DNA of 64,000 nucleotides from Bacillota bacterium. Its GTDB lineage: Bacteria; Bacillota; Clostridia; Lachnospirales; Bianqueaceae. Position numbers and translations under genes: made by a program. Where the stretch lies: NCBI GenBank assembly GCA_017442735.1, contig JAFRZE010000072.1, positions 185,838-249,837 of the forward strand. Reading direction: 5' to 3'. This document shows, piece after piece, positions 2,146-55,569 of this stretch. The notes below the pieces were generated by a model. The model was not told the DNA's origin, did not search any database, and worked only from the letters and a program-made list of their open reading frames with translations. Within the stretch, counting starts at the first letter, position 1, and the number at the start of each line of letters is the position of its first letter.

Positions 2146-2167
2146 TCCAGCACCTCTTCACTCTCTA

Positions 2168-19770: not shown

Positions 19771-20256
19771 TTACGGTAATTCCACGTCTTTCCCGGCACT
19801 CAGATATCTCAGATGAAAACTGGTGGATGTGTCCTTGATATCATTATAGCCGATCGTCACACCGTACTTTTCCGACACATCCAGCGCTTTATCTCCAAAA
19901 CCATATACATAGTGATAATGCGGATGTGAATCTTCGACCAGTTTCGGTTTTCGCCCTGCTACCCACTTCTCATCCTGGAGATAATAAGCCTTTTCTTCTA
20001 CTTTTTTGATCGTGCTGCCCGAAGGCATGGCCTTTATTTTCTTTTTTTCGCCGGAACCTTTTATATAAGAATCTTCCCATACACCGTTTTGCAGCTTTCC
20101 TATAAAGGTTTCCACGACCTTTCCCTTTTTCATTACTGCGAACCAGAATACATTTTCTTTGCCGCCGATGACATGATCCACATCATTCTGATACGCCTGG
20201 TAAAATTCAAAACCCTGGTTTTCATCCACCAGTTGGATAAAGCGTTCCTCTGGCAT
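19771..20256 (-). CDS. Hypothetical cytoplasmic protein (161 aa)
   Basis: Good RBS GGGAGGA. No signal peptide. Lower local GC than its neighbours. Lies 11 nt downstream of the lipoprotein gene. Confidence 0.5.
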   Translation of the reverse strand: MPEERFIQLVDENQGFEFYQAYQNDVDHVIGGKENVFWFAVMKKGKVVETFIGKLQNGVWEDSYIKGSGEKKKIKAMPSGSTIKKVEEKAYYLQDEKWVAGRKPKLVEDSHPHYHYVYGFGDKALDVSEKYGVTIGYNDIKDTSTSFHLRYLSAGKDVELP

Positions 20257-20267
20257 GGTTTTCCTCC

Positions 20268-20891
20268 CTACTGTGCTTCCAGACCTTTCATGATCTGATT
20301 CAATTCTGAATCGGATTTTCCCTGAAGTTCGTCGGCTGCGTAAAATCTGGTCAAAAGTGTCGCGATAGCTTTTCCGTTATAGGTAAAAACTAAATCGTAG
20401 TAGCCTGGGTTCTGATCCTCTGGGTTGAGATAGAAGGGTGCGTAAGCATCTTCCTCATCTCCGGAGACTTCCGCATACGCCGCCAGACCTTTCATCTCCT
20501 CAGAAAATTTCATTTTCTCATACTGGCCTTGATCCTCGTTATGAACAAATACCCAGACACAAAGCTTGGATTTATCACCGGATACTTCGGGATATATTTC
20601 TACCCATTCATCCAGCTCAAAGATACAGCGAATTCCCTCCGTTGCTGCTTTCTTTTCGTTGAATTCTGTGCTTCCGGCAAGGTTCCCGCTGATCCGAAGA
20701 CTTTTCAGAACCGGTTCTTCCCCTTCTTTCAGCCCGATCAAATACAGCTTGCCGGGAAGACGAGCCTCTTCCGCCTGACTGCCAGTCGTTGTTTCTTCCG
20801 TAGTTTCCTTGGTTTCCTTTTTGCTGCAGGCCGTCAGGGTGATCAGCATGACGCCGATCAGCAGCCAGCAAATGGTTCGTTTCATAGACAT
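20268..20891 (-). CDS. Lipoprotein of unknown function
   Basis: Signal peptide plus lipobox LTAC-S. Thr/Glu-rich linker. Several in-frame ATGs at 20885-20897; RBS AAAGGAGGA. Confidence 0.6.
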   Translation of the reverse strand: MSMKRTICWLLIGVMLITLTACSKKETKETTEETTTGSQAEEARLPGKLYLIGLKEGEEPVLKSLRISGNLAGSTEFNEKKAATEGIRCIFELDEWVEIYPEVSGDKSKLCVWVFVHNEDQGQYEKMKFSEEMKGLAAYAEVSGDEEDAYAPFYLNPEDQNPGYYDLVFTYNGKAIATLLTRFYAADELQGKSDSELNQIMKGLEAQ

Positions 20892-20893
20892 CA

Positions 20894-21754
20894 TCATTCC
20901 TCCTTTGATGGGTCAAATTCTTCTTCTACACTATAATCAACGGTATCGGAAAAGTGCCACCATTCTCCCGAATATGGTTCAAATCCAGCATCGATCATGA
21001 CATCTTCCAGCAGAAGGGCATTGATCGTCTCAACTTCCGTGCAGTCGGAATAGTCACGATCTGCACGATATGAGAAATCATCAAACCCTGTCGGCATCTC
21101 CACTTCATTTCCGTCCAGCGTTATGATGGTCAGATCCACGGTGTTCCCACAACTGTGCAATGAGTACCCTGTGATGGGATTCGCGACATACCGCGGATCC
21201 GGGCAGACCTCCCAGAGAACATACTGCGCTGAAACCGGACGAAACGCGTCCCAGATCAGCAGCTTGTAGCCCAGCTCCTTCAAAGCTTCCTGCGCCTCAG
21301 CCAGTTTTTTCACCGTACCATAGCGAAGGTATGCTTCCGTGAAATCATAAATGACCGCGCCTGTAAAGTTCTGATCGGTCGCGTACATGAGCATCACTTC
21401 CACATCAGGGATATAGTCTTTCACCCTCACAAAATCTTCGTCATCCGGTTCCACTGCAGATTCTGCCGGTTCTTCCGATTCCTCTGTCGACTCTTCCGCA
21501 GGCTCACTCTGCGACGATCCTTCGCTGTCTTCCGCTTCACTGGCAGAGTCTGTCTTGATCTCTGGTACTTTCTTGCCCTCTCTGGCCTCTGATTCTTCTT
21601 CCTGTGCTTCAGAAACCTCAGAGATCATCTCTTCCACAGGCTGACTGCTTACCTCATCGAGTTCATCAGTTTTTTCTCGGCACCCTGATACCAGGAGCAG
21701 CAAGAATCCCGCTGTCATTCCTACCACAAGTAATCTGAAAAGCCATCTGCGCAT
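20894..21754 (-). CDS. Exported D-Ala-D-Ala dipeptidase-like M15 metallopeptidase (DdpX/VanX family) lipoprotein
   Basis: Signal peptide + LVSGC lipobox; Glu/Ser-rich linker. The catalytic domain IWDAFRPVSAQYVLWEVCPDPRYVANP...HSCGNTVDL...GEWWHF parallels E. coli DdpX (IYDAYRPQQAQAMLWQACPDPQYV ... HSRGTAIDL ... SEWWHF). Confidence 0.75.
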   Translation of the reverse strand: MRRWLFRLLVVGMTAGFLLLLVSGCREKTDELDEVSSQPVEEMISEVSEAQEEESEAREGKKVPEIKTDSASEAEDSEGSSQSEPAEESTEESEEPAESAVEPDDEDFVRVKDYIPDVEVMLMYATDQNFTGAVIYDFTEAYLRYGTVKKLAEAQEALKELGYKLLIWDAFRPVSAQYVLWEVCPDPRYVANPITGYSLHSCGNTVDLTIITLDGNEVEMPTGFDDFSYRADRDYSDCTEVETINALLLEDVMIDAGFEPYSGEWWHFSDTVDYSVEEEFDPSKEE

Positions 21755-23028
21755 CAGTTAAAAATCACCTCTGAGATCAACGTGTCGTCGAACTCGGTTC
21801 CCTTATAGACACTTTGTATGTAAATCGTCACACTTGAGGCGTAGTGCATTGGCTCGAAGGTAAGTACCTGAGATTTCATCACATCCTCGAACGGAACGAG
21901 CTCGCTGCTCACTCCATCCGGTCCGTCAAAAACGATCAGCAATTCCTTCGGGCGGGAATTTTCACCAAAGAGTTTCTCGCTCTTATGATATCCGGCATAG
22001 ATCTCTATCTTCTGGATATAATAACTGCCGTCAAACTCTACTTTCACCCATTCATTTTCTCCGTACCCATCCACGCCTTCACACCAGGCGTTTTCAAGCG
22101 TGCCGTCACAGATCATCGCGCCGGAATGATCGAGCCCGAGATTTGATTCGTCCAGTTCGGAAGAGGCTGTGATTTTCACGATCGACGGAGATACGATCTC
22201 AACAGGCACGGAGGATTCAGTTTCTGGTTCTGATTCTTCCACTGGTTCTGAAGGCTCCGGTTCAGAAGATTCTGATGTCTCCAAGGATTCCGCCTCTGAT
22301 ACTTCCACCGGCTCCGAGACCTCAGGCTCTGAGACCTCAGGCTGCGAGGACTCAGGCTTGGATTCTTCCACTGGCGGTGTCTCCTCTACAGTTTCAGGCT
22401 CCGATGTTCCCCCACTGATCAATGATTCTTCCTCACTGCGAAGCTTTTCTACCTGTTCATCGCGGATCCTGGATAATTCTTCCCTGGGAAGATTGGCAAA
22501 CAGTGAGTCATGCATCGAGTTGAACCTCTTGTTCTGCGGCATATATCCGCCGCACCGTTTGACCATCCTTTCATCCGTATCATACAGCATCAGATAGAGA
22601 GAATACCCATCGCAGACATCCATTTCCGGCTCCGGATCGAGCAGATAGAGTTCTTCCCGGTCGATCGCTTTTTCAATGTTCTGATATTGCTCATCCGTCA
22701 GAGTCACGGTAGCGATCAGACCCCAGTCTTCCGCGGAATAGTTCTCGACTTTTGTCGGCAAATAAACCAGCACGGTATGATCCGTACAAATGATCAGTTC
22801 CGCACTGAGACAGTCAAAGTATTCACCCCAGCTGCTTCCGCCGTAATAGGTACCCACCAGATACTTCGAAGAAAACTCGGGCACTTCGACTACTTCGCCT
22901 CCGCTGCTCTCTTCTTCCTTTTTTATATCTTTTCCTTTATCCCTGTCCTCGATGCCATCCGTTTTCATACATCCCGCGGAAAAGACCATCAGCAGGACGA
23001 GGAAAAGAATAAACCATGTCTTTTTCAT
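21754..23028 (-). CDS. Lipoprotein with acidic SE/PE-rich low-complexity linker and C-terminal beta-sandwich (discoidin/F5-8-like) domain
   Basis: Signal peptide, AGC lipobox, repeats PEVSEPEVSEPVEVSE. C-terminal GLDHSGAMICDGTLENAWCEGVDGYGENEWVKVEF is typical of galactose-binding-like domains. TGATG overlap with the downstream gene. Confidence 0.55.
   Translation of the reverse strand: MKKTWFILFLVLLMVFSAGCMKTDGIEDRDKGKDIKKEEESSGGEVVEVPEFSSKYLVGTYYGGSSWGEYFDCLSAELIICTDHTVLVYLPTKVENYSAEDWGLIATVTLTDEQYQNIEKAIDREELYLLDPEPEMDVCDGYSLYLMLYDTDERMVKRCGGYMPQNKRFNSMHDSLFANLPREELSRIRDEQVEKLRSEEESLISGGTSEPETVEETPPVEESKPESSQPEVSEPEVSEPVEVSEAESLETSESSEPEPSEPVEESEPETESSVPVEIVSPSIVKITASSELDESNLGLDHSGAMICDGTLENAWCEGVDGYGENEWVKVEFDGSYYIQKIEIYAGYHKSEKLFGENSRPKELLIVFDGPDGVSSELVPFEDVMKSQVLTFEPMHYASSVTIYIQSVYKGTEFDDTLISEVIFN
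22300..22365. repeat. Short tandem DNA repeat (about 15 bp unit, about 3 copies) encoding the acidic linker
   Basis: ctccgagacctcaggctctgagacctcaggctgcgaggactcaggc: imperfect tandem copies of gagacctcaggctct. Confidence 0.5.
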
Positions 23029-29219: not shown

Positions 29220-29251
29220 TCGTTAGCAGAAAATCTGGAGATATACATAGA

Positions 29252-29330
29252 AAAAGGCCCCATTGGGTGTCTTCTCAGCGAGTTCGCGAAGTGTGCCGAG
29301 CCTGAGAAGGCGCCCATGGGGCCTTTTGCT
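29252..29330. terminator. Long imperfect hairpin, bidirectional terminator between glyA and the convergent TPM gene
   Basis: AAAAGGCCCCATTGGGTGTCTTCTCAG ... CCTGAGAAGGCGCCCATGGGGCCTTTT: stem of about 25 bp flanked by A-runs and T-runs. Confidence 0.7.
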
Positions 29331-29343
29331 TTATGGATTTCTT

Positions 29344-30147
29344 TTAGATTTTCCCTGATGTGCCGCCGTGGACTCCACCACCGCCACCACCGGATGGTCT
29401 GGTCGTTGTCGGACGGTTAGGGTTCTGTTGCTGCTGTTGTCTGGGTACTCTTGTGATCTGCGAATACAGATACTGCTCTCTGGCGTCTACGACCTGCAGG
29501 CTGTTCGAACGCACATAATTCTTGGCTCCCTGTTGCTGATGAACGGATGTCAGCGCCGCTTTCTGGCCGCCGGTCCCGATCCATCCGGCGATGGCGCCTA
29601 CAGCCGCTGCGATAGGAGCCCAGATGGGATTGTGTTTTTTCTCCGTCGGTTCAGCTTGTTGTCCAGCATGCTGCAGATAATAATCCGCGCCTGAGCCGAA
29701 GGTCGAAATAGCATTCACATAATCCTGGCTCTTCAGATACGGAGCGACCTGTGAGATCAGTTCATTGCATTCATAGTCAGAGAACACGCTGTAAGCGTAA
29801 CCGCCTGTCGAAAACGCGTATTCGCTTTCATCGATCGCAAACAGAAGGACAATACCATTATTCGTTGAGCCAAACCCGACATTCGCATCGAAATATGCAT
29901 CCGCGGCATTCGCGGCTGACTCACCGTTCAGTGACTGCTTCAGTACGAAGACCACGTCACACTGATTGTTTTTACTGTACTCGGCCAGTTTGGAGTTCAG
30001 TTCCTGAATCTGATCCTGACTGAGAGAGCCGGATTCATCGACCACATAGACAGAAGCAGCGGAAGAACTCATCGCGCCAAAAATCGATACGCTTAAGATC
30101 AGCGCGACCAGCAGGGCAAGGATAGAACGAACATTCAATCTTTTCAT
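29344..30147 (-). CDS. TPM-domain (TLP18.3/Psb32/MOLO-1) protein with C-terminal TM helix and Gly/Gln-rich tail (YdjH/YgcG-like)
   Basis: Signal/anchor MKRLNVRSILALLVALILSV; TPM core (VYVVDESGSLSQDQIQELNSKLAEYSKNNQCDVVFVL...NNGIVLLFAIDESEYAFSTGGY); TM IWAPIAAAVGAIAGWIG; GGGGGG tail. RBS AAGGAGGG lies inside the end of the upstream gene. Confidence 0.75.
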   Translation of the reverse strand: MKRLNVRSILALLVALILSVSIFGAMSSSAASVYVVDESGSLSQDQIQELNSKLAEYSKNNQCDVVFVLKQSLNGESAANAADAYFDANVGFGSTNNGIVLLFAIDESEYAFSTGGYAYSVFSDYECNELISQVAPYLKSQDYVNAISTFGSGADYYLQHAGQQAEPTEKKHNPIWAPIAAAVGAIAGWIGTGGQKAALTSVHQQQGAKNYVRSNSLQVVDAREQYLYSQITRVPRQQQQQNPNRPTTTRPSGGGGGGVHGGTSGKI

Positions 30148-30160
30148 CTTTCATCCCTCC

Positions 30161-31252
30161 TTACAGCAGCTGGAAGAGCCAGGAGGCTCCATATACGAAC
30201 GCCGCCGCGATGCCCGCGATCAGGCCCCACTTTTTCCAGTAGAGTTTCTTATCCATGGGCAGATCACCGACAAATTTACCGGTCTGTCCATTCATGGCAA
30301 AGGTATATTTATTGTTTTCCCATGTCGTATTCAGAAGCCAAACCGGATACAGCACATATTTCGCTACGCCGTTCATCAGCTGGATGCTCGAATACTCATT
30401 CGCGACAGAAGCATAGCCCTGTCCCTGCACCGTCTGGTCAAAGGCCTGCTGCGTGGACTGTTTGATCCGCTCATTCGCGCGATTCACGGTCGTCTCTTTA
30501 TCGACATCGTACTTGTCCGCCAGATATCCGGCAAGATACGCTGTCTGGAAAGGAACGGCTTCCTGAAAATTGAAGGGTTCGATGGATTCCATCAAGGTGT
30601 CATCCAGCTTGGAGGATCCGTCGACCGGTACATGATCGAATCCCAGATATCCGCCGCGGATGACCTGGAAATAACCGGTCTCCGTATAGACCCACTGAGG
30701 ATCGGACCAGGTACGGACTCTGGTCGCCTTGTAGCGCATCTTCGCGCTGGCGTCAGCGTTGAACACCCAGTACGGGACATAGAGTCCTTTGATCTCGTCG
30801 ATATGGTTCTCGTCCTTGAAAACGGCGGGAAGCAGTTTTTTCGTCGCAAGATGTTTCTTTAGCGCGTTTTTAGCCGCCTGCTTGTCGAGTTTGAACGGAA
30901 TGATATAGTCCGGTTTCAGATGACCGCTGAAGTTGCCCATCATCATAACGGGGTTCCCGCAATACGGGCAGCTGGTAGCCGCTGTGTTCGCGTCGCCGAC
31001 GATCTCACCGCCGCATGACTTGCATACATATACGCGAAGTCCGGAAGCTTCACCTTCGGTCCATTCAGATCCGGGTTCACTCTGCCATTCCATACTGTCC
31101 GGAGAATCCGTCGCGAGCTCCTGGTCGTACGCCTGCAGCGTCTGAAGATCGAACTCGGTGTCACAGTAGGGACATTTCATTTTCTGAAGTGTACTGTTCC
31201 ATTCGATCGCGCCGCCGCAGCAAGGACATTTATATTGAAGTAGTCCTGCCAT
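30161..31252 (-). CDS. Double zinc-ribbon protein with C-terminal TM helix (YdjG-like)
   Basis: CPCCGG..CPYC and CKSCGG..CPYCGN ribbons; C-terminal helix WGLIAGIAAAFVYGASWLF. RBS AAGGAGAC. Confidence 0.6.
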   Translation of the reverse strand: MAGLLQYKCPCCGGAIEWNSTLQKMKCPYCDTEFDLQTLQAYDQELATDSPDSMEWQSEPGSEWTEGEASGLRVYVCKSCGGEIVGDANTAATSCPYCGNPVMMMGNFSGHLKPDYIIPFKLDKQAAKNALKKHLATKKLLPAVFKDENHIDEIKGLYVPYWVFNADASAKMRYKATRVRTWSDPQWVYTETGYFQVIRGGYLGFDHVPVDGSSKLDDTLMESIEPFNFQEAVPFQTAYLAGYLADKYDVDKETTVNRANERIKQSTQQAFDQTVQGQGYASVANEYSSIQLMNGVAKYVLYPVWLLNTTWENNKYTFAMNGQTGKFVGDLPMDKKLYWKKWGLIAGIAAAFVYGASWLFQLL

Positions 31253-31290
31253 AGATTGCTGTCTCCTTATCCAATCTTTCTAATAAAGAA

Positions 31291-31320
31291 GGACCGGGCT
31301 GCCTAAGCAGCCTGGTCCTC
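31291..31320 (-). terminator. Intercistronic stem-loop between the SPFH and zinc-ribbon genes (attenuator or partial terminator)
   Basis: AGGACCGGGCTGCctaaGCAGCCTGGTCCT 13-bp stem; on the minus strand it is followed by UCUUUAUU. Confidence 0.45.
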
Positions 31321-31336
31321 ACTGGTTTCTGAATGA

Positions 31337-32665
31337 TCAGCCTAACTTAGCTCCGCATTCCGGGCAGAATTTGCCGAGAACTCCATCAGCCGGGGTATAT
31401 CCGCAGTTCGGGCAGCTGGCCACCGGTTTCGCCTTACCGCAGTTCATACAGAACTTGCCGGTATTCTGGGTGCCACAGTCCGGGCAGGTCCAGGTACCCG
31501 CGGGAGCGGGCTGCGGTTTGCCGCAGTTCATGCAGAACTTGCCGGTATTCTGAGTGCCGCACTCGCAGGTCCATCCGCTGGCGGGAGCGCCCATCGGGGC
31601 TGCGCCGGGAGCCGGCTGAGCGGCCTGCTGCTGATACTGAGGCTGCTGTTGCTGACCCATCGCGTAAAGATTCTGCGCGTTCATGCCGCCCATACCGCCG
31701 GCATTCATTGCCATACCCATGCCAAGGAATCCGGTCATAGCGCCAGCGGAGTTGCCGGCAGCGGCCTTCATCGCGTCGGCCTGAGCACCGACCAGCGTAG
31801 CGCCTGCCATGGTAGGATCTTTCAGCATCGCGGTTCTCTGCGCCTGTTTGATCAGTTCCTGATCTTCCTCAGGCAGCGTGACGGAACCAAGCGCGACAGA
31901 AACGACCTGCAGACCGCGAAGGTTGCCCCATTTCTCGGACAGCTCGCTGTTCAGAGCGGCTTCGAGTTCGGTGTTGTGGGTGACGATCTGGTTCGGACGA
32001 AGTTCCAGCTCAGAAAGTCTTCCGAAGGAAGGCTGCAGAGCGCTGACGAATTCGGGTTTCAGCTGAGTATCGATCTTGTCACGGGTATATTCCTGGGTGA
32101 CATTGCCGCAGACGTTGGTGTAGAAAAGCAGCGGGTTCGCGATCCGGTAGCTGTAAACACCGGAGCAGCGGACGGAAACATCGATATCCAGTCCGATCTT
32201 GGAATCGACGACACGGAAAGGAATGGGATTCGGGGTGCCGAATTTGTTGTTGATGATCTCTTTGGTGTTGAAGTAGTAAACTCTCTGATCTTTTCCGGTG
32301 TCACCGCCGTAGGTGAAACGTTTGCCGATCTCTTTGAAGGTCTGTTTAATGGATTCTCCGAGAGAACCTGCGAAGATGCTGGGCTCCAGAGAGGTATCAT
32401 ACGTGAACTGACCGGGCTCCGCACAAACTTCCACGATCTTGCCGTTTTCAACGATGATCATACACTGACCGTCATTGACCACGATACCGGAACCGTTGGA
32501 AATAACGTTATCAGAACCTTTGGTGTTGGAGGAACGGTTGCCGATTCTCTTCTGGCCCTTGGTAACGAGAACATTCTCGTCCATGGAATCACAGTAGAAG
32601 AACTCTTTCCACTGATCGGCAAGAACGCCGCCGACAGAACCGACAAGTGCAGAAATAAGACCCAT
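31337..32665 (-). CDS. SPFH/band-7 domain protein with Gly/Met/Gln-rich linker and three C-terminal zinc ribbons (YdjI-like)
   Basis: Layout parallels B. subtilis YdjI as recalled: SPFH core, then a low-complexity MGMAMNAGGMGGMNAQ region, then CxxCG...CxxCG ribbons (CECGTQNTGKFCMNCGK x2, CPNCG...CPECG). RBS AAAGGAG. Confidence 0.7.
   Translation of the reverse strand: MGLISALVGSVGGVLADQWKEFFYCDSMDENVLVTKGQKRIGNRSSNTKGSDNVISNGSGIVVNDGQCMIIVENGKIVEVCAEPGQFTYDTSLEPSIFAGSLGESIKQTFKEIGKRFTYGGDTGKDQRVYYFNTKEIINNKFGTPNPIPFRVVDSKIGLDIDVSVRCSGVYSYRIANPLLFYTNVCGNVTQEYTRDKIDTQLKPEFVSALQPSFGRLSELELRPNQIVTHNTELEAALNSELSEKWGNLRGLQVVSVALGSVTLPEEDQELIKQAQRTAMLKDPTMAGATLVGAQADAMKAAAGNSAGAMTGFLGMGMAMNAGGMGGMNAQNLYAMGQQQQPQYQQQAAQPAPGAAPMGAPASGWTCECGTQNTGKFCMNCGKPQPAPAGTWTCPDCGTQNTGKFCMNCGKAKPVASCPNCGYTPADGVLGKFCPECGAKLG
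31433..31570. repeat. Direct repeat of about 58 bp, two copies with an 80-bp period, encoding a duplicated zinc-ribbon unit
   Basis: cgcagttcatacagaacttgccggtattctgggtgcc... recurs as cgcagttcatgcagaacttgccggtattctgagtgcc... The encoded peptide GTQNTGKFCMNCGK is duplicated. Confidence 0.7.
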
Positions 32666-32774
32666 AGTGAATCTCCTTTCAAAACATAGAAATTGTGGTG
32701 ATTCAAATATAGCATCTTCCCTTAGTCAAGTCAAGAAAAACCGCCTCATACAAAAGAGTGATATTTTGCTTATA

Positions 32775-44796: not shown

Positions 44797-44870
44797 TTGC
44801 AAAAACCATTCCTGCGTGATACAATCAATTCTAATATTAGTTATACGTGACAGAAAGGATCCTCCGGATC

Positions 44871-45494
44871 ATGGCAAAACTGTATTTCAAATTTGGAGCG
44901 ATGGGCTCATCCAAGACAGCTCAGGCGCTGATGACCAAATTCAATTATGAAGAAAAAGGCAAAAGCGTCCTGCTGATCAAGCCTGCGACCGACACCCGTG
45001 ACGATACCGTGGATGAAAGCGGCAATATCCATACGGTCGTTCGTTCGAGGATCGGTCTTTTCCAGGAAGCCCTTGCTGTAGGCCCGTCTGTTGATATCCG
45101 CGAGTTCTATCATCGGCAAAATGAACAGGATCATCTGGACGTAGTCATCTGCGACGAGTGTCAGTTTCTGACGCCCGAGCAGGTCAGCCAGATGAAGGAT
45201 CTCGCCGATCTGGACGATGTACCGGTGCTCTGCTTCGGGCTTCGCGCGGATTTCCAGACAAAACTTTTTCCCGGATCCAAGCGGTTATTTGAGATCGCGG
45301 ATTCCATTACGGAAATCAAATCGGTCTGCCGCTGCGGAAGAAAAGCGACTGTCAACGCCCGTTTCGACGATAACGGACAGATCATCGTCGAAGGCGCGCA
45401 GGTCGTTCTTGGCGGCAATGACCGCTATGAAGGTCTGTGCTACAACTGCTATCGTAAACTGATCCGTGAAAGCGGACAAAAACTTATTTATTAA
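44871..45494 (+). CDS. tdk: Thymidine kinase
   Basis: P-loop [15 protein letters not shown]-terminal zinc ribbon CRCGRKA...CYNCY. Start at MAKLYF (RBS GAAAGGA) rather than the upstream GTG. Confidence 0.9.
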
Positions 45495-45508
45495 TATCCA
45501 AGGAGGTC

Positions 45509-46180
45509 ATGATGGAACTGAAAGAGATTCTCTCAAAAGTCGACCATACCCTGCTCTCCCAATCCGCGACCTGGGATGATATCCGGGCAATCGTCGACGA
45601 CGGCATCAAGTATGAAACGGCTTCGGTCTGTATCCCTGCATCCTATGTGAAACAGGCAGCCGAATACGCGAACGGACGTGTCAAGATCTGCACGGTCATC
45701 GGATTCCCGAACGGCTATTCCACCACGCCTGTCAAGGTATTTGAGGCGGCAGACGCTATTCGGAACGGAGCTGACGAAGTCGATATGGTCATCAATATCG
45801 GCTGGCTGAAAGACAAACGCTATGAAGATCTCCTGAATGAGATCCGTGATATCAAAGCCGCCTGTGAAGATCATATCCTGAAGGTCATTATCGAGACCTG
45901 CCTGCTGACGGAAGAAGAAAAGATCAAAATGTGCGAGATCGTCTCCGCTTCCGGCGCAGACTATATCAAAACTTCCACCGGATTCTCCACCGCCGGCGCG
46001 ACCAAGGAAGATGTCGCCCTGTTCGCGAAATACGTCGCTCCGCATGTGAAGATCAAAGCGGCCGGCGGCATCAGTTCGCTGCAGGATGCGGAAGACTTCG
46101 TCAATCTGGGTGCTTCCCGCCTTGGGACCAGCCGCATCGTGAAGATCGTCAAGGGTCTGGATACCGGATCCGGATATTAA
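45509..46180 (+). CDS. deoC: Deoxyribose-phosphate aldolase
   Basis: VDHTLLS, Schiff-base lysine region YIKTSTGF; 223 aa. RBS AAGGAGGT. Confidence 0.9.
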
Positions 46181-46199
46181 TGAGGAGGTAATCAATTCC

Positions 46200-46964
46200 A
46201 TGGCTAATCTTTATCCTACTCCCCACATCAACGCAAAACCGGAAGACTTTGCCAGAACTGTCCTGATGCCGGGCGACCCGCTCCGCGCCAAGTTTATTGC
46301 CGAGACTTTCCTGGAGAACCCGGTCCTTGTGAATAATGTCCGCGGCGTCAACGGCTATACCGGCACCTTTGAAGGCGCCCGCGTGACTGTCATGGCCAGC
46401 GGAATGGGCATTCCTTCGATCGGCATCTATTCCTATGAACTTTTCAATTTCTTCGGTGTGGAAAATATCATCCGCATCGGTTCTGCCGGCGCGCTGGACC
46501 TGGGCATCCATGTCCGTGACCTGGTCTTCGGTATGGGCGCCTGCACAAACAGCAACTATGCCCACCAGTTCCACCTGCCCGGCGCCTTTGCCCCGATCTG
46601 TGATTTCGACCTCCTGAAGACTTCCACCAGGATCGCGGAAGAACTCGGACTTCGCTTCCATGTGGGTAACCTGCTTTCTGCCGATACCTTCTACGGCGAC
46701 GATCTTGGCATCCCTGAGGCCATGCAGGCCAATGCCGCCTGGGCCAAGATGGGTGTCATGGCAGCTGAGATGGAAGCTGCGGGCCTTTATATGAATGCAG
46801 CCCGCGCGAACAAACCCGACGCACCTCGCCGCGCGCTCGCGATCTGCACCATCTCCGACCACATCCTGACCGGAGAAGCCACGACTGCGGAAGAACGCCA
46901 GAACACTTTCACCGATATGATGAAAGTCGCTCTGCGTACCGCCAAGGAGTTTGACCATGAGTAA
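46200..46964 (+). CDS. deoD: Purine nucleoside phosphorylase (DeoD-type, PNP/UDP family 1)
   Basis: TPHINA...VLMPGDPLRAKFIAETFLE...VNNVRG...GMGIPS closely follows the E. coli DeoD pattern. Confidence 0.9.
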   Translation: MANLYPTPHINAKPEDFARTVLMPGDPLRAKFIAETFLENPVLVNNVRGVNGYTGTFEGARVTVMASGMGIPSIGIYSYELFNFFGVENIIRIGSAGALDLGIHVRDLVFGMGACTNSNYAHQFHLPGAFAPICDFDLLKTSTRIAEELGLRFHVGNLLSADTFYGDDLGIPEAMQANAAWAKMGVMAAEMEAAGLYMNAARANKPDAPRRALAICTISDHILTGEATTAEERQNTFTDMMKVALRTAKEFDHE

Positions 46965-48114
46965 ACGCGTCTTTCTGATCGTTCTCGATTCCTGCGGGAT
47001 CGGTGAAGAGCCGGATGCCGCCATGTTCGGGGATGCCGATTGCAATACCATGCTTTCCATCTCCAAGGATCCGGCTTACCGCAATGAAAACACCCGCGCT
47101 ATTGGCCTTGCCAATATCGACGGCCAGGAATACCTCGGCCCGGTCGATGATCCGATCGGCGCCTACGGAAGGCTTAGGGAAGCTTCCATGGGCAAAGATA
47201 CGACGATCGGCCACTGGGAGATCGCCGGCGTGATCTCCGAGCAGCCTATGCCTACCTATCCGAACGGTTTCCCGGAAGAAGTCCTGAAACCTTTCCGCCA
47301 GGCTACCGGCCGCGGGGTCATCTGCAATCTGCCCTATTCAGGAACAGACGCGATCCGCGACTATGGTGAGGAGCATATGAAGACCGGCGATCTGATCGTC
47401 TATACTTCTGCCGACTCTGTCTTCCAGATCGCAGCCAATGAAGCCCTGGTCCCTCCGGAACTTCTGTATGAGTATTGCCGCATGGCCCGAAACATCCTTA
47501 CCGGCCCTCACGCGGTAGGCCGTGTCATCGCCCGCCCGTTCATCGGCACCTGCAAGGAGGATTTCAAGCGGACAGCGAACCGCCACGACTTCTCCCTGGA
47601 GCCCACCGGCGAAACGATGCTCGATGCTATCAAGGCTGCCGGGCAGACAGTCTACGCGATCGGAAAGATCAATGATATCTATGCCGGCCGCGGCGTAACG
47701 GAATATGTCTATACCCACAGCAACACCGAAGGCATGGAAAAAACGATGGAAGCACTTAGTAAGGATTTCGAAGGCCTGTGCTTCACCAACCTGGTCGACT
47801 TCGACATGCTCTACGGCCACCGCCGCGATATCACCGGATACGCGAAAGCTTACGCGGAATTTGACAGCTGGCTGGGCGAATTCATGAAGAAGATGGGACC
47901 GGAAGATATCGTGATGATCACAGCCGATCACGGCTGTGATCCGGGTGATCAGCACCATACGGATCACACGAGGGAATATATCCCTTACCTGGCTTACGGC
48001 AAAGCCCTCGAGCCGAAAAACTACGGGACTCAGCCGACCTTCGCGGCGATCGCGGCTACGATCACAGACTACCTTGGCGTGCCGTATACCTGCAAAGGCA
48101 AAGTCCTGAAATAG
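46951..48114 (+). CDS. deoB: Phosphopentomutase
   Basis: KRVFLIVLDSCGIGE N-terminus, metal-site TADHGCDP. Overlaps deoD by 14 nt. Confidence 0.9.
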   Translation: MTMSKRVFLIVLDSCGIGEEPDAAMFGDADCNTMLSISKDPAYRNENTRAIGLANIDGQEYLGPVDDPIGAYGRLREASMGKDTTIGHWEIAGVISEQPMPTYPNGFPEEVLKPFRQATGRGVICNLPYSGTDAIRDYGEEHMKTGDLIVYTSADSVFQIAANEALVPPELLYEYCRMARNILTGPHAVGRVIARPFIGTCKEDFKRTANRHDFSLEPTGETMLDAIKAAGQTVYAIGKINDIYAGRGVTEYVYTHSNTEGMEKTMEALSKDFEGLCFTNLVDFDMLYGHRRDITGYAKAYAEFDSWLGEFMKKMGPEDIVMITADHGCDPGDQHHTDHTREYIPYLAYGKALEPKNYGTQPTFAAIAATITDYLGVPYTCKGKVLK

Positions 48115-48134
48115 AAACGGAGGGGAGAATCACC

Positions 48135-48569
48135 ATGACGAACGAACAGCTCTGTCAGGAAGCTCTTCAGGCCATGAAGAAAGCTTATGCTCCCTATTCC
48201 GGCTACAAGGTAGGGGCAGCGCTTCTTTTGGCGGACGGGAAAGTCTATACCGGATGCAACATCGAAAACTCCTCATTTACTCCGACCATCTGCGCGGAAC
48301 GTACCGCTTTTTTCAAAGCCGTCAGCGAACGAAAAGAAGAGTCTCTGCCGGAATTTGTCCGGATCGCGGTATGCGGAGGTGAAGGTGGGAAGATCACCGG
48401 CGCTTTTCCTCCCTGCGGTGTGTGCCGGCAGGTCATGAGCGAATTCTGTACAGACAGTTTTGAGATTCTGATGATCACGTCGGCCGATCCCGTGCAGTAT
48501 GAAACATGCCTGCTGCCTGACCTTCTGCCATTTCGTTTTTCACCGGATTATCTTGAAAACAAGGGTTGA
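48135..48569 (+). CDS. cdd: Cytidine deaminase
   Basis: Zinc motif CAER...PCGVCRQ; 144 aa, the homotetrameric type. Confidence 0.9.
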   Translation: MTNEQLCQEALQAMKKAYAPYSGYKVGAALLLADGKVYTGCNIENSSFTPTICAERTAFFKAVSERKEESLPEFVRIAVCGGEGGKITGAFPPCGVCRQVMSEFCTDSFEILMITSADPVQYETCLLPDLLPFRFSPDYLENKG

Positions 48570-48594
48570 TTCTTCGACAGTTTTCTATTAAAAT
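48566..48594 (+). promoter_or_regulatory. Internal promoter TTGATT-17-TAAAAT upstream of bmpA
   Basis: TTGATT at 48566-48571 overlaps the cdd stop. 17-nt spacer, TAAAAT at 48589-48594; the ATG is at 48661. Confidence 0.5.
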
Positions 48595-48660
48595 ATAGTG
48601 GATATAGAGCGACTCACCCTCGCTTTAATCAAATACTACTCTTATAAGGAGAGAAAACAC

Positions 48661-49773
48661 ATGAAAAAGATTCTTGCTCTGATGCTCAGCCTGGCTCTGT
48701 GTGTGATGGTCCTGGCTGGATGCTCCGGCGCTGGTGCTGGCGGCGACGCTGCCAACATGAAAGTTGCCATGGTTACCGACTACGGTGACATCACCGACCA
48801 GTCCTTCAACCAGACCACTTATGAAGCCTGTAAGGCTTGGGCAGAAGCGAACAAAGTTGATTTCAACTATTTTAAACCTGCTTCTGACTCAAATGAAGAT
48901 CGTGTTTCCATGATCGAGAAGGCTGTTGACGAAGGTTATACCGTTATCGTTATGCCCGGTTACGCGTTCGGTCCCGCCATCGAAAAGACCGCCGGTGAAT
49001 ATCCGGATGTCACCTTCATCGCGCTGGACGTTTCCGCCGGTGACTTCTCCGCTGACTACAAGATTCCTGCAAACCTGTATTCTGCAGTTTATCAGGAAGA
49101 GCTCTGCGGTTATATGGCTGGCTACGCTGCTGTTAAGCTTGGCTACACCAAGCTCGGCTTCCTTGGCGGTATGGCTGTTCCCGCTGTTGTTCGTTATGGC
49201 TACGGATTTGTTCAGGGCGCGGACGCTGCAGCTGCTGAACTCGGCGCTGATGTCGAACTCAACTATGCATACGGCAACCAGTTCTATGGTGATGCGGATA
49301 TCACCGCTGCCATGGATACCTGGTATGCGGCCGGCACCCAGGTCGTTTTCGCCTGCGGCGGCGGTATCTATACCTCCGCGGCTGAAGCTGCTCAGAAAGT
49401 CGGCGGCAAGGTGATCGGCGTTGACGTCGACCAGGCTGCTACGATCGATGGTCTCTATGGTGCAGGCATGACCATTACCTCCGCTATGAAAGGTCTTGGC
49501 GCTACTGTCAACACCATGCTGACTGCTGTCAAGGAAGGCAAGTTCGAAGGCGGAAAGATCGATACCCTCGGTCTTGTTTCCGATACACCCGCTGAGAACT
49601 ATGTCCAGCTGGCTCCTTCTACCCAGTTCGGCGCAGGCTTTACCGAGGATGACTACAATGCACTCGTTAAAGCGATGAATGCCGGAACGATCAAAGTCAG
49701 CAACGACATCTCCATCAGTGCTGCTGATAATGCCAAAGTCCTGAAAGTCAACGATCAGGGCAACATCAAATAA
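48661..49773 (+). CDS. BMP-family (Med/PnrA-like) nucleoside-binding lipoprotein of an ABC importer
   Basis: Signal peptide + LAGCSG lipobox; MVTDYGDITDQSFNQ; 370 aa. RBS AAGGAGAG. Confidence 0.85.
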   Translation: MKKILALMLSLALCVMVLAGCSGAGAGGDAANMKVAMVTDYGDITDQSFNQTTYEACKAWAEANKVDFNYFKPASDSNEDRVSMIEKAVDEGYTVIVMPGYAFGPAIEKTAGEYPDVTFIALDVSAGDFSADYKIPANLYSAVYQEELCGYMAGYAAVKLGYTKLGFLGGMAVPAVVRYGYGFVQGADAAAAELGADVELNYAYGNQFYGDADITAAMDTWYAAGTQVVFACGGGIYTSAAEAAQKVGGKVIGVDVDQAATIDGLYGAGMTITSAMKGLGATVNTMLTAVKEGKFEGGKIDTLGLVSDTPAENYVQLAPSTQFGAGFTEDDYNALVKAMNAGTIKVSNDISISAADNAKVLKVNDQGNIK

Positions 49774-49796
49774 TTATACTCTATTCATGTCTATGA

Positions 49797-49827
49797 AAGG
49801 AGAGAGCCAGGCGCTCTCTCCTTTTCC
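49797..49827 (+). terminator. Intra-operon hairpin/attenuator between the binding-protein gene and the ATPase gene
   Basis: AAAGGAGAGAGCcaggcGCTCTCTCCTTTTCC: 12-bp stem plus a short U-tract. Confidence 0.6.
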
Positions 49828-49860
49828 AATCATTCCATAGAGAGAAGGGAGGAACCACCC

Positions 49861-51429
49861 ATGTCGGCAGAAAACACGGCACAGGTCCAGCAGGAACCTT
49901 ATGCCATAGAAATGCTGCATATTACCAAACGGTTCCCGGGAATCATCGCGAATGACGATATTTCTCTTCAGCTGAGAAAAGGTGAGATCCACGCGCTGCT
50001 CGGAGAGAACGGCGCCGGAAAATCCACCCTTATGTCCGTTCTGTTCGGACTGTATCAGCCGGAGGAAGGCGAGATCCGAAAAAACGGTCAGAAAGTTGAG
50101 ATCCACGATCCCAACGACGCCAACGATCTGGGGATCGGCATGGTGCACCAGCACTTCAAACTGGTCGAGTGCTTTTCTGTTCTGGATAACATCATTCTAG
50201 GTGTCGAACCCACCAATAAAATGGGTATCCTGCAAAAAGCGGAAGCCAGAGAAAAGGTCATTGCTCTATCTGAAAAATACGGTCTGAGCGTCAATCCTGA
50301 CGCGATCATCGAAGATATCACGGTAGGCATGCAGCAGAGAACTGAAATCCTTAAAATGCTCTACCGCGACAACGAGATCCTGATTTTCGACGAACCGACG
50401 GCTGTTCTGACACCCCAGGAAATCGAAGAACTCATGCAGATCATGAAAAATCTCGCGGCTGAAGGCAAATCGATCCTTTTCATCTCCCACAAACTGAATG
50501 AGATTATGTCGGTCGCGGATCGCTGCTCTGTCCTTCGCAAAGGAAAATACATCGGTACCGTCAATATTGCTGACACCACCGCTGAAGGTCTGTCCGCCAT
50601 GATGGTCGGCCGAAACGTAAACTTCCATGTGGAAAAAGGTCCGGCACATCCGACCGATGTCGTTTTGGAAGTTAAGAATATGTCTGTCGCGTCCAAAACC
50701 CATCCTTCCGATGCGGTCAAAAATGTTTCCTTTAAAGTCCGGAAAGGTGAGATCGTGTGTATTGCCGGTATCGACGGCAATGGTCAGACGGAACTCGTCT
50801 ACGGTCTGTCCGGTCTGGAACCGGTCAAGAGCGGCAGCATTTTCCTGAATGGAACCGATATCACTCAAATGTCGATCCGCAAGAGAAGTACCAGCGGAAT
50901 GTCGCATATACCCGAAGACCGTCATAAACACGGTCTTGTCCTCGACTATACACTGGAAGACAACATCGTCCTGCAGCGTTATTTCGAGCCGGAGTTTACT
51001 TCGAAAACCGGTCTTCTCCGTCGTGACAATATCCGCGCGTATGCCGAAAAGATCATTGAACAGTATGACGTACGTTCCGGACAGGGCCCGATCACGATCG
51101 CCCGTTCCATGTCCGGCGGAAACCAGCAGAAAGCCATCGTCGGCCGTGAGATTGACAAGAACCCGGATCTTCTGATCGCAGTCCAGCCCACCCGTGGTCT
51201 GGATGTCGGCGCCATCGAAGGTATCCACAAAGAACTGGTAAATCTGCGTGACGCGGATAAAGCTGTCCTGCTCGTCTCGCTCGAACTGGATGAGGTCATG
51301 GATGTTTCTGACCGTATCCTGGTCATGTATGAAGGTGAGATTGTCGGCGAAGTCGATCCGAAGAATACCACCGTCGAAGAACTGGGTCTTTATATGGCCG
51401 GCGCCAAGAGAGATGAGGTGAAAGCATGA
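49861..51429 (+). CDS. ABC transporter ATP-binding protein with duplicated NBDs (nucleoside/sugar importer type)
   Basis: Two Walker A motifs (GENGAGKST; GIDGNGQTE) and two signature-like motifs; 522 aa. Confidence 0.85.
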   Translation: MSAENTAQVQQEPYAIEMLHITKRFPGIIANDDISLQLRKGEIHALLGENGAGKSTLMSVLFGLYQPEEGEIRKNGQKVEIHDPNDANDLGIGMVHQHFKLVECFSVLDNIILGVEPTNKMGILQKAEAREKVIALSEKYGLSVNPDAIIEDITVGMQQRTEILKMLYRDNEILIFDEPTAVLTPQEIEELMQIMKNLAAEGKSILFISHKLNEIMSVADRCSVLRKGKYIGTVNIADTTAEGLSAMMVGRNVNFHVEKGPAHPTDVVLEVKNMSVASKTHPSDAVKNVSFKVRKGEIVCIAGIDGNGQTELVYGLSGLEPVKSGSIFLNGTDITQMSIRKRSTSGMSHIPEDRHKHGLVLDYTLEDNIVLQRYFEPEFTSKTGLLRRDNIRAYAEKIIEQYDVRSGQGPITIARSMSGGNQQKAIVGREIDKNPDLLIAVQPTRGLDVGAIEGIHKELVNLRDADKAVLLVSLELDEVMDVSDRILVMYEGEIVGEVDPKNTTVEELGLYMAGAKRDEVKA

Positions 51430-52634
51430 GTAAACCTAAAGAGAAGAAAAGCCTGTTCCAGAACGACGGCTTTCAGGCGCTGCTTGCTTCCCTGATCTGT
51501 ATCGTTCTAGGAATGCTGATCGGCTTCATCGTTCTTCTGTTCATTAATCCCAGCGGTGCCGGTGCTGCCATCGGCGCTGTCATCAAAAACTTCCTGAACT
51601 ATTCAAGAGCTTCTCTGCAGATCAAAAACTTCGGCAACACACTGGTCAAAATGGCTCCCCTGCTGATGTGCTCGCTGTCCGTCCTGTTCTGCTACAAAGT
51701 CGGACTGTTCAACATCGGCGTAGCCGGTCAGTATGTCGTCGGCGCCTGCATCAGCATTTATGCCGCACTGGCCTGGGGCCTTCCCTGGTGGTTGTGTTTG
51801 ATCCTCGCGATCATTGTTGGTGCACTCGACGGCGCTATTGTAGGCCTTTTGAAAGCTTACTGCAATGTCAACGAAGTTATCTCCGGCATCATGCTCAACT
51901 GGATCGGCCTATATACTACGAACATGATCCTGACCACGGTCAAGGAATCCACCAGTCCTTATACGTTGGATCTGCGTTTGTATGCTCCCAAGTCCGTGCT
52001 TCCTAATATTGGTTTTTCCAAACTGTTTTCCGGCAATGAATACATGTCCATCGCGATCCCGCTGGCTATCATCATCGCGATCGCGATCAAGATCATTCTG
52101 GATAAAACGAAATTCGGATATGAACTCAAGGCGACCGGTTTCAACAAAAACGCCGCCAAATACGCCGGTATGGCAGAAAAACAGAACATCATCATCACAC
52201 TCGCGATCGGTGGTGCGCTGGCTGCCTGCGGTGGTGCTTTCCTGTATCTGACCGATTATGAGCTTTGGGAATGCACTTCCTCCTCCGTGCCCGGCATGGG
52301 CTTCAACGGTATTGCGGCAGCTTTCCTGGGCGGTCTGAATCCTGTCGGTACGATTTTTGCGTCCTACTTTATTCAGCACATTACTTCCGGCGGTGCATAC
52401 GTTGACAAGTCTCTGTATTCCTCTCAGATCTCCGATCTGATTTCCGCTCTGATCATTTATCTGTGCGGCTTCGTAGGCTTTATGAAGCTGGCGATGAAAA
52501 AGTACAGCGCAGCCAAAGCTGCCAAATCCGGCCAGATCGAAAATGTGAACGCGGAACCGGAACCTGCTGTTTCCAAAGAGGAGGATCCTCCAACGAACAG
52601 TGAAGCAAAACCAGAGGAAGGAGGTAACGAATAA
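51426..52634 (+). CDS. ABC transporter permease (BMP-system, NupP-like)
   Basis: Polytopic membrane protein. ATGA overlap with the ATPase. The C-terminal hydrophilic tail of roughly 40 aa is unusual. Confidence 0.8.
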   Translation: MSKPKEKKSLFQNDGFQALLASLICIVLGMLIGFIVLLFINPSGAGAAIGAVIKNFLNYSRASLQIKNFGNTLVKMAPLLMCSLSVLFCYKVGLFNIGVAGQYVVGACISIYAALAWGLPWWLCLILAIIVGALDGAIVGLLKAYCNVNEVISGIMLNWIGLYTTNMILTTVKESTSPYTLDLRLYAPKSVLPNIGFSKLFSGNEYMSIAIPLAIIIAIAIKIILDKTKFGYELKATGFNKNAAKYAGMAEKQNIIITLAIGGALAACGGAFLYLTDYELWECTSSSVPGMGFNGIAAAFLGGLNPVGTIFASYFIQHITSGGAYVDKSLYSSQISDLISALIIYLCGFVGFMKLAMKKYSAAKAAKSGQIENVNAEPEPAVSKEEDPPTNSEAKPEEGGNE

Positions 52635-53578
52635 TGTTATTACTTCTTCAGTATACACTGATATTCTCATCTGTACTTACGCTGGTTGCTTTAGGTGGCT
52701 GCTATTCGGAACACTCCGGTGTTATTAACCTGGGTCTGGAAGGTATTATGGTCATCGGTGCCCTTGGCGGCGCGCTGGTCATGCGTTTCCTCCCCACGGG
52801 TACGCCTGGTATCCTGGTCGTTCTCCTGACGATCGCCGGTGCTGTCGTATTCGGTGTTGCCTACTCCGCTCTGCTGGCCGTTGCCTGTATCAACTTTAAA
52901 GCGGACCAGACGATCGTCGGAACAGCACTGAATATACTGGGTACAGCTTTAGCAACTGTTCTTGTAAAAGCGATCAACATGAAACTTTCCGGCGGCGACG
53001 ACGTTTCATCGACCATTCAGTATGTCAACGCGAAACAGAGCTTTATTGCATATCTGGGCTCCTTCCAGTTCAACTGGTTCATGGTCATCGCGATCATCGC
53101 ACTGGTCATCGCTTATGTTGTCCTCTATAAGACCAAATTCGGTCTTCGGATGATGGCTTGCGGCGAACATCCACAGGCAGCTGCTTCTGTCGGTATCAAC
53201 GTCTATAAGATGCGCTGGTCCGGTGTTCTGATCTCCGGTATTTTCGGTTCTCTCGGCGGTATCTGCTACATTCTGGCAGGTGTTTCCGAGTGGAAGTTCG
53301 AAAACGGTGTTGCCGGTTTCGGTTTCCTCGCCCTGGCTGTTATGATCTTCGGTCAGTGGAAACCTACAAGGATCGCACTGGCAGCTTTGCTTTTTGGTTT
53401 GTTCCGTGCCCTGTCGAATGTCTATATAGGTATCGATTTCCTGGCAGCGCTGAACATTCCCAGTACGGTCTATAATATGTTCCCGTACATCATTTCTCTG
53501 GTTGTTCTGGCCTTTACATCCAAGAATTCCAAGGCTCCCAAGGCCGAGGGTATCCCGTACGATCCCGGCCAGAGATAA
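52634..53578 (+). CDS. ABC transporter permease (BMP-system, NupQ-like)
   Basis: Polytopic membrane protein. Its start overlaps the upstream stop (TAATG). Confidence 0.8.
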   Translation: MLLLLQYTLIFSSVLTLVALGGCYSEHSGVINLGLEGIMVIGALGGALVMRFLPTGTPGILVVLLTIAGAVVFGVAYSALLAVACINFKADQTIVGTALNILGTALATVLVKAINMKLSGGDDVSSTIQYVNAKQSFIAYLGSFQFNWFMVIAIIALVIAYVVLYKTKFGLRMMACGEHPQAAASVGINVYKMRWSGVLISGIFGSLGGICYILAGVSEWKFENGVAGFGFLALAVMIFGQWKPTRIALAALLFGLFRALSNVYIGIDFLAALNIPSTVYNMFPYIISLVVLAFTSKNSKAPKAEGIPYDPGQR

Positions 53579-53593
53579 AATCTGTTTTGAAGA

Positions 53594-53630
53594 AAAGAGC
53601 CGCTTCTTTCGGGACGCGGCTCTTTCTTAT
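53594..53630 (+). terminator. Rho-independent terminator after the ABC importer genes
   Basis: AAAGAGCCGC-(loop)-GCGGCTCTTTCTTAT: perfect 10-bp stem. Confidence 0.75.
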
Positions 53631-53653
53631 CCCTATGACGGAGGTGATCTTCT

Positions 53654-54955: not shown

Positions 54956-55569
54956 TGGAAAACACACTGATTATCGGGATCGCTGGTGGTTCCGGCTCCG
55001 GCAAAAGCACGATCACCGAAATTTTGAAAAAGAAATTCGGTGAAGACGTCACGGTGATCAATCATGACAATTACTATAAAGCGCAGCATGACAAATCCTA
55101 TGAAGAGCGGACAAAGCAAAACTATGACGCGCCGGATGCTTTCGACACAGATCTTCTGGCGGAACATCTAGAGCTTTTAAGACAGGGATTTGCCATCGAC
55201 TGTCCGGTCTACGACTACACGCAGCATGACCGCAGCGACAAGACCATCCGGATCGAGCCGTCCAAGGTGCTGATTATTGACGGCATCCTGGTTCTTGCCG
55301 AGCCTAAGCTTCGCGACTTTATGGATATCAAGATCTTCGTCGATACAGACGCGGATATACGGATCCTCCGCCGGATCCAGCGTGATGTCAATGAACGGGG
55401 CCGTACCCTCGACTCTGTTATTTCCCAATATCTTTCGACAGTCAAACCCATGCATGAAATGTATGTGGAACCGTCGAAAAAATACGCGGATATCATCATC
55501 CCTGTAGGCGGTCATAATCTGGTCGCCATGGAAATGATCGAAAACCGTGTCCGCTCTCATATTTTCTAA
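54952..55569 (+). CDS. udk: Uridine kinase
   Basis: P-loop IGIAGGSGSGKST, DGIL, RRIQRD. ATGA overlap with pdp. Confidence 0.9.
   Translation: MMENTLIIGIAGGSGSGKSTITEILKKKFGEDVTVINHDNYYKAQHDKSYEERTKQNYDAPDAFDTDLLAEHLELLRQGFAIDCPVYDYTQHDRSDKTIRIEPSKVLIIDGILVLAEPKLRDFMDIKIFVDTDADIRILRRIQRDVNERGRTLDSVISQYLSTVKPMHEMYVEPSKKYADIIIPVGGHNLVAMEMIENRVRSHIF

Follow-up and report, generated by a model that had tools for sequence, protein, structure and literature searches.

When the three genes that stand next to pspA in Bacillus occur together in another lineage with no pspA beside them, what has become of the system? This question is raised by a stretch of 64,000 nucleotides from a Clostridial Bacillota bacterium, an uncultured one of gut or rumen (contig JAFRZE010000072.1, positions 185,838 to 249,837), referred to here as the window. 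Three open reading frames lie in a row on its minus strand, at positions 29344-32665, and encode an SPFH-domain protein, a double-zinc-ribbon protein and a TPM-domain protein. An earlier reading made from the sequence alone had likened them to the ydjGHI (samGHI) group of Bacillus subtilis and had suggested a membrane-stress scaffold that works independently of PspA. We found that the triad is homologous to ydjI, ydjG and ydjH, that it probably constitutes a self-contained operon encoding the Clostridial form of the Bacillus membrane complex, and that the lack of a neighboring pspA is ordinary among its relatives.

The three genes and their Bacillus counterparts

The genes, in the order of transcription, are:

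31337-32665, minus strand: samI/ydjI-like SPFH gene, 442 amino acids (PF13421, PF01145, BLASTP to Bacillus YdjI)
30161-31252, minus strand: samG/ydjG-like gene, 363 amino acids (weak zinc-ribbon Pfam matches, BLASTP to Bacillus YdjG)
29344-30147, minus strand: samH/ydjH-like gene, 267 amino acids (PF04536 TPM, BLASTP to Bacillus YdjH)

A Bacillus pspA-ydjGHI reference locus was located by scanning genomes with the ydjG primer of Scholz et al. 2021 (PMC8581546). By BLASTP, the ydjG-like protein aligns with Bacillus YdjG at 33% identity over 330 amino acids (E=6e-69), the TPM protein with YdjH at 24% identity over its full length, the motifs of the Gly-rich tail included (E=6e-14), and the SPFH protein with YdjI at 22% identity, collinearly over its full length with the linker and one ribbon (E=1e-9). 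The Bacillus proteins receive the same Pfam assignments as their counterparts in the window. Further, the published domain description (PMC11237479) fits the window proteins point by point: YdjI (written YdjL in that paper) has a band-7 domain and a C-terminal zinc ribbon, YdjG has two zinc ribbons, a YpeB-related core and a transmembrane helix, and YdjH has a TPM domain and a low-complexity tail. Because all three proteins align with YdjI, YdjG and YdjH, the proposed likeness to ydjGHI is supported, and at the level of sequence comparison the homology of the three genes to Bacillus ydjI, ydjG and ydjH is established. The order of the genes, I-G-H rather than the G-H-I of B. subtilis, had gone unmentioned. 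The proteins are already in the NCBI database as MBQ7059958-60, annotated as SPFH domain-containing, hypothetical and TPM domain-containing; the SPFH protein is identical to MBQ7059960.1, “SPFH domain-containing protein”. No informative NCBIfam model was found for any of the three.

The SPFH protein matches PF13421 (Band_7_1) at E=9.8e-20 and PF01145 at E=4e-7, in keeping with the SPFH assignment of the sequence-only reading, and shows weak zinc-ribbon matches in its tail. A Met/Gly/Gln-rich linker leads to three C-terminal zinc ribbons, which were read directly from the sequence:

31340..31573, minus strand: three tandem CxxC-N(9-12)-CxxC zinc ribbons of the SPFH protein, approximately residues 365-442

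Their motifs are CECG..CMNCG, CPDCG..CMNCG and CPNCG..CPECG, and their cysteines are invariant in 25 relatives. Counted by eye on the SPFH tails, the ribbons number 3-5 in relatives, as against one in Bacillus YdjI. No hydrophobic segment was found in the SPFH protein, which is predicted to be soluble and to lack a membrane anchor of its own. A search by sequence found no solved structure for the PF13421 branch.

The ydjG-like protein has only weak zinc-ribbon matches in Pfam. Its eight cysteines form two N-terminal CxxC...CxxC ribbons and recur without exception in 22-37 divergent relatives. An alpha/beta core of about 220 amino acids follows, and then a single C-terminal hydrophobic helix, because of which the protein is predicted to be tail-anchored with its bulk in the cytoplasm. 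The features expected of YdjG/SamG are thus all present: two N-terminal zinc ribbons, a YpeB/PepSY-like core and a C-terminal transmembrane helix.

The TPM protein matches PF04536 at E=5e-24, again as the sequence-only reading had anticipated. It is predicted to have an N-terminal signal or anchor peptide, an extracytoplasmic TPM domain, a second transmembrane segment rich in Ala and Gly, and a cytoplasmic tail that carries a conserved YLYS..TR motif and a run of Gln and is rich in Gly at its end. The C-terminus reads ...RPSGGGGGGVHGGTSGKI (also written ...GGGGGGVHGGTSGKI), and a Gly-rich tail of the form ...SSTHTSSSGxTHGGGGGKF is kept in 43 of 66 distinct tails of relatives. Three SPFH ribbons and a poly-Gly TPM tail had been pointed out for this locus; both are indeed there, but the multi-ribbon and Gly-rich tails are family features and not peculiar to it. 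The nearest solved TPM structures by sequence are BA41 (5anp, E=9e-7) and 7tbr. A second TPM-domain protein is encoded on the minus strand at 62392-63999, open at the right edge of the window, beyond which its start codon and any partner genes upstream of it would lie; PF04536 matches it in two stretches (E=1.4e-22), after which come a transmembrane helix and a tail rich in Ser, the general layout being that of YdjH.

The triad has the outward form of an operon: the genes share a strand, their spacers are 84 nt and 13 nt, one promoter-like site stands 5' and one terminator-like hairpin stands 3'. The signals are:

32706..32734, minus strand: candidate operon promoter of the sigma-A/sigma-70 type (TTGACT, 17 nt, TATATT, with a TG extended -10)
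31282..31319, minus strand: GC-rich hairpin, GGACCAGGCUGC-UUAG-GCAGCCCGGUCC and then UUCUUUAUU, between the SPFH and ydjG-like genes
29246..29336, no strand assigned: long inverted repeat, a bidirectional terminator-like hairpin with A-run and T-run flanks, between the convergent glyA and ydjH-like genes

The candidate promoter, found by a consensus scan, agrees with the consensus at 10 of 12 positions and carries the TG; it lies about 40 nt 5' of the SPFH start codon, which has the Shine-Dalgarno sequence GAAAGGAGA. The divergent gap of 197 nt to gpmI also holds TTGACA-18-TACAAT on the plus strand, facing gpmI. A motif-level scan of these 197 nt upstream of the triad found no sigma-W-like TGAAAC -35 element. 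At the other end, the gap of 124 nt to glyA folds in both directions (plus strand -60.8 kcal/mol, z -7.3; minus strand -44.9, z -5.0). The bidirectional terminator and the divergent promoter region described in the sequence-only reading can therefore both be recognized. Rfam models run on the operon and its spacers gave a single chance match, in the glyA-gap repeat, to a miRNA precursor, far below the gathering score.

The strong stem-loop that had been placed between the SPFH gene and the rest is likewise there. The folding energy of the 84-nt spacer is -28.8 kcal/mol (z=-3.6), none of 200 shuffles folds equally well, and the centroid structure is a hairpin with a GC-rich stem of 12 bp. A simple terminator scan did not list it because of one A-C mismatch in the stem. 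It is likely a partial terminator or a 3' stabilizer; to judge from the sequence, it may end a part of the transcripts. Several other lineages have non-homologous hairpins in the same spacer, and in about 17 loci this spacer measures 4-26 nt.

PspA and the distribution of the module

The proteins of the triad are widespread. In gut and rumen Clostridia, relatives at 65-75% identity run into the thousands for the SPFH protein and likewise for the YdjG-like one, and the YdjG family, clustered at 50% identity, forms 6,872 clusters (E<=1e-3), 1,465 of them with E<=1e-30. For a census of gene order we took 80 metagenome loci with a YdjG homolog at 57-66% identity and added seven loci from contig look-ups. 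A TPM gene lies directly downstream of the YdjG homolog in 79 of the 80. The SPFH core is upstream on the same strand in 60 of the 61 that can be judged, the other 19 having too little upstream sequence; the sole exception (L073, 1-9935) is a YdjG-TPM pair with no SPFH gene within 9.9 kb upstream. Because the arrangement is kept in 60 of 61 judgeable loci, the triad is no chance juxtaposition. The close-relative loci L001-L003 have the triad and synteny identical to the window, and L004-L007, from Lachnospiraceae, have the triad in flanks unrelated to it. The flanks are glyA and gpmI in the window and its close relatives, uvrBA in the Lachnospiraceae lineage (L004) and alr in L093; since they differ between lineages, the triad moves as a unit. 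The system is a known one, and the locus typifies an architecture of it that is very common in Clostridia.

More distant YdjG representatives show the module in reduced forms as well. L093 retains an I-G-H triad, L092, L097 and L098/L099 have YdjG-TPM pairs with no SPFH gene, and in L095/96 the YdjG gene is alone. In L098 (4966-8609) and L099 (2133-5071), the pair stands between recA and recX, on one strand with them.

Additional genes stand in or near the operon in some lineages. In about 11 loci (L013, L020, L031, L034, L036, L040, L064-L066, L071 and L076), 2-4.5 kb of same-strand genes separate the SPFH and ydjG-like genes. The insert of L020 (5844-9975), the only one scanned, encodes small zinc-ribbon proteins (DUF4428+DZR, Zn_ribbon_3 and a DUF3592-like protein), and L004-L007 have a DUF4428 gene upstream of the triad. 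Zinc-ribbon proteins may thus recur around the module, as far as these sequences indicate. An apparent second SPFH paralog between SPFH and YdjG in some loci was rejected, the matches being zinc-ribbon matches to DUF4428/DZR proteins and not SPFH domains.

PspA itself was sought in several ways. PF04012 matched none of the open reading frames of the window (at least 70 amino acids, non-overlapping, greedy caller), while the positive control, Bacillus PspA, matched it at 2e-41. Bacillus PspA as a phmmer query against all six frames of the window gave nothing at E<=10, and a hidden Markov model built from the Bacillus and E. coli proteins gave nothing at E<=5 in the window and nothing in the related loci. 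The E. coli PspA probe is approximate; it still recovers Bacillus PspA at 1e-16 and finds nothing in the window or the loci. The statement that neither the operon nor the window holds a PspA gene therefore stands. Further, a pspA in the same operon just beyond the window is excluded because the operon has its own candidate promoter and terminator and more than 29 kb of the window on each side.

What does not hold is the view of this absence as an oddity of the locus. None of the 87 related triads (seven plus 80 loci) has PspA within 10 kb, and none of seven judgeable contexts of more divergent members has one nearby; of all the loci sampled, the four from Bacillus were the only ones to show PspA linkage. 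Among these loci, a missing pspA is simply the normal state of the module outside Bacillus. Function independent of PspA is a separate matter: 64 kb of a 274-kb contig cannot support that inference. Among the papers searched, none describes an SPFH/TPM/zinc-ribbon triad that lacks PspA, and the phage-shock-protein phylogenies searched do not break the Firmicutes down to Clostridia.

The probable membrane complex and competing explanations

In B. subtilis, the recruitment of the soluble YdjI to the membrane requires YdjG and YdjH, YdjH binds YdjI, and PspA foci at the membrane depend on the SPFH protein (PMC8581546). SamI also restrains signaling by SamGH, and PspA is dispensable for the SamI phenotypes (bioRxiv 10.64898/2026.02.06.704340). 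The topologies predicted for the window proteins fit this model: the TPM domain is outside, the tail of the TPM protein is cytoplasmic, the YdjG-like protein is tail-anchored and the SPFH protein is anchorless. We think it probable that the locus is a self-contained three-gene operon, P(sigmaA-like)-samI-hairpin-samG-samH-terminator, and that it encodes the YdjGHI/SamGHI membrane complex of Bacillus in its Clostridial form. By their topology and the B. subtilis precedent, the TPM protein and the tail-anchored protein with two zinc ribbons would form a membrane receptor, in which the former would have its TPM domain on the outside, a single membrane helix and a conserved tail on the inside. The soluble SPFH protein would be drawn by this receptor to the cytoplasmic face of the membrane, where it may oligomerize into a scaffold that organizes membrane patches and restrains the SamG-SamH sensor. 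With its position behind the SPFH gene, the hairpin could raise SPFH output over that of the two anchors, a possible parallel to the terminator after pspA in Bacillus, and the sigma-A-type promoter points to a basal, housekeeping level of expression and not to induction by an extracytoplasmic-function sigma factor. In this lineage PspA would be no integral component of the module; if encoded elsewhere, it might be recruited in trans with no physical linkage.

Several points weigh against this picture. Its mechanistic steps are all transfers from B. subtilis across 22-33% identity. The PF13421 match is weaker here (1e-19) than in Bacillus (2e-43), and the AlphaFold2 model of the SPFH protein is unusable, with a predicted local distance difference test score (pLDDT) of 36 from a shallow alignment of 25 sequences at at least 70% identity; because the model is poor, the SPFH fold rests on profile matches only. 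The promoter is a candidate by consensus match only. Many relatives have spacers of 4-26 nt, so the stoichiometry argument from the hairpin is lineage-specific at best. Finally, the YdjG-TPM pairs that occur with no SPFH gene imply that the pair can work without the SPFH protein, which may be an accessory rather than the center of the system.

In the most serious competitor, the module would depend on PspA as in B. subtilis: a PspA/IM30 protein encoded elsewhere would be the effector and be recruited in trans by the SPFH protein, and only the linkage would have been lost. The requirement for the SPFH protein in forming membrane PspA foci (PMC8581546) and the presence of PspA_IM30 in most bacterial lineages (PMC11237479) both speak for it. 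The consistent unlinking, with no PspA within 10 kb of any of the 87 triads and none in the window, argues against an obligate partnership, as does the dispensability of PspA for the SamI phenotypes in B. subtilis itself (bioRxiv 10.64898/2026.02.06.704340). We regard dependence in trans as a real possibility, although one that falls short of being probable.

The opposite extreme is the suggestion of the sequence-only reading in its strict form: a scaffold or sensor of membrane stress that makes no use of an ESCRT-III/PspA protein at any time and serves other clients in Clostridia. Every non-Bacillus context sampled lacks pspA, the YdjG-TPM pair is a conserved core that occurs with neither SPFH nor PspA, SamGHI has PspA-independent phenotypes in B. 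subtilis (bioRxiv 10.64898/2026.02.06.704340), and the zinc-ribbon proteins inside the operon in about 11 loci could be alternative partners. However, absence of linkage differs from absence in the genome, no client, output or signal can be identified from the sequence, and no regulator is encoded with the module. We lean away from this strict version and consider it rather unlikely. An extended form is more doubtful still: Clostridial SamI-SamG-SamH would be an autonomous envelope sensor and scaffold free of PspA/ESCRT-III, with YdjG-TPM as the ancient core, SPFH and PspA as lineage-specific additions, and the 3-5 SPFH ribbons as a multivalent docking platform for the inserted zinc-ribbon proteins (DUF4428, DUF3592-like).

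SPFH proteins commonly cage or regulate membrane proteases. The triad could be a protease or enzyme system under SPFH control, comparable to HflK/C-FtsH or stomatin-NfeD, or its TPM protein could be an extracytoplasmic phosphatase or repair factor to which the other two are accessories. Examples of SPFH proteins as protease regulators are given in the discussion of bioRxiv 10.64898/2026.02.06.704340. References quoted in PMC11237479 report TPM domains as phosphatases or ATPases and place Psb32/TLP18.3 in photosystem repair, and the solved structures closest to the TPM protein, as noted above, include BA41. Yet no NfeD, FtsH or other protease gene was found in the operon, its immediate flanks or the Pfam-annotated related loci, and neither NfeD nor FtsH was found elsewhere in the window. 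The SPFH protein is predicted to have no membrane anchor of its own, and the phosphatase role of TPM domains is disputed (PMC12419801). Both versions of this explanation seem to us improbable. An anti-phage defense or mobile-element cargo module is barely credible: SPFH and zinc-ribbon proteins do occur in conflict systems and the module does sit in variable neighborhoods, but we dropped the defense and phage readings because PADLOC gave no family for the SPFH and TPM proteins and one match at E=0.097 for the zinc-ribbon protein and because no relative was found in 2.9 million viral contigs, and the flanking genes here are the housekeeping glyA and gpmI, with no integrase or transposase. The base composition is unremarkable.

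Other genes of the window and comparison with known systems

The remaining genes of note lie apart from the triad. On the plus strand, a nucleoside-salvage cluster (44847-55569) that looks ordinary encodes thymidine kinase, DeoC, purine nucleoside phosphorylase, a phosphopentomutase-like protein, cytidine deaminase, a Bmp/PnrA ATP-binding cassette (ABC) transporter, pyrimidine nucleoside phosphorylase and uridine kinase. After the uridine kinase gene comes a gene (55591-57600, plus strand) for a 669-amino-acid protein whose only recognizable feature is an N-terminal zinc ribbon (PF13240, E=5.5e-7). Four minus-strand genes at 19771-23028 encode an NADase_transloc F5/8-type C domain protein (21754-23028), a VanX-like D-Ala-D-Ala dipeptidase (20894-21754) and two small open reading frames with no Pfam match. 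At 1498-5109, also on the minus strand, a LuxR/NarL-type response regulator (1498-2145) is preceded by open reading frames of 426 and 554 amino acids in which Pfam recognizes no domain. This region showed no histidine kinase domain, and a LiaFSR-like reading of the regulator and the two upstream genes was dropped, there being neither kinase nor Toastrack domains.

The locus does not represent a new class of system. Its proteins are already generically annotated at NCBI, the mechanism is borrowed from Bacillus, and the finding would cause a specialist no great surprise, the less so since the 2026 preprint (bioRxiv 10.64898/2026.02.06.704340). The comparison does support the view, recently put forward, that SamGHI has functions in its own right, and it marks abundant gut anaerobes as places to study them. 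A Band_7_1 protein of Megasphaera elsdenii (G0VRR0) was detected in the cattle rumen metaproteome, where its abundance shifts after feeding (PMC7035244); this detection indicates that members of the SPFH branch are expressed in rumen anaerobes.

Each part of the triad has better-known relatives. With TLP18.3/Psb32 and BA41/BA42 the TPM protein shares the TPM fold, according to the PF04536 profile and the sequence match to 5anp and 7tbr, but its gene is paired with a YdjG-type zinc-ribbon gene, and the Psb32 equivalog model gives it 14.8 bits against a cut-off of 160. The flotillins FloA/FloT, HflK/C and the stomatin-NfeD systems have in common with the SPFH protein the SPFH/Band-7 domain (PF01145) and, presumably, the nature of an oligomeric membrane scaffold. 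Unlike these, the window protein lacks the flotillin coiled-coil domain, has no membrane anchor or hairpin of its own and no NfeD or FtsH partner nearby, and belongs to the PF13421 branch. The YdjG-TPM pairs of other Firmicutes (L092, L097, L098/L099) consist of the same two membrane proteins in the same order; no SPFH gene is found in their flanks, whereas in the window it lies directly upstream.

The closest likeness is to pspA-samGHI of B. subtilis. In both, the SPFH protein combines PF13421, a Met/Gly-rich linker and a C-terminal zinc ribbon, and in both operons a terminator-like hairpin follows the first gene. That hairpin lies after the SPFH gene in the window and after pspA in Bacillus; the order is I-G-H with no pspA, as against pspA-G-H-I; the SPFH tail has three ribbons, as against one in YdjI of the B. 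subtilis type; and the promoter is sigma-A-like, whereas TGAAAC stands upstream of pspA in the Bacillus locus, a comparison made at the level of motifs. The absence of pspA, the permuted order, the 3-5 ribbons and the sigma-A-type promoter would thus set the Clostridial module apart from the Bacillus prototype. YdjGHI/SamGHI of B. subtilis is currently described as a membrane adaptor of PspA. The loci sampled here suggest the reverse emphasis: the YdjG-YdjH pair is the widespread core, the SPFH gene usually lies upstream of it in gut and rumen Clostridia, and linkage to PspA is the exception.

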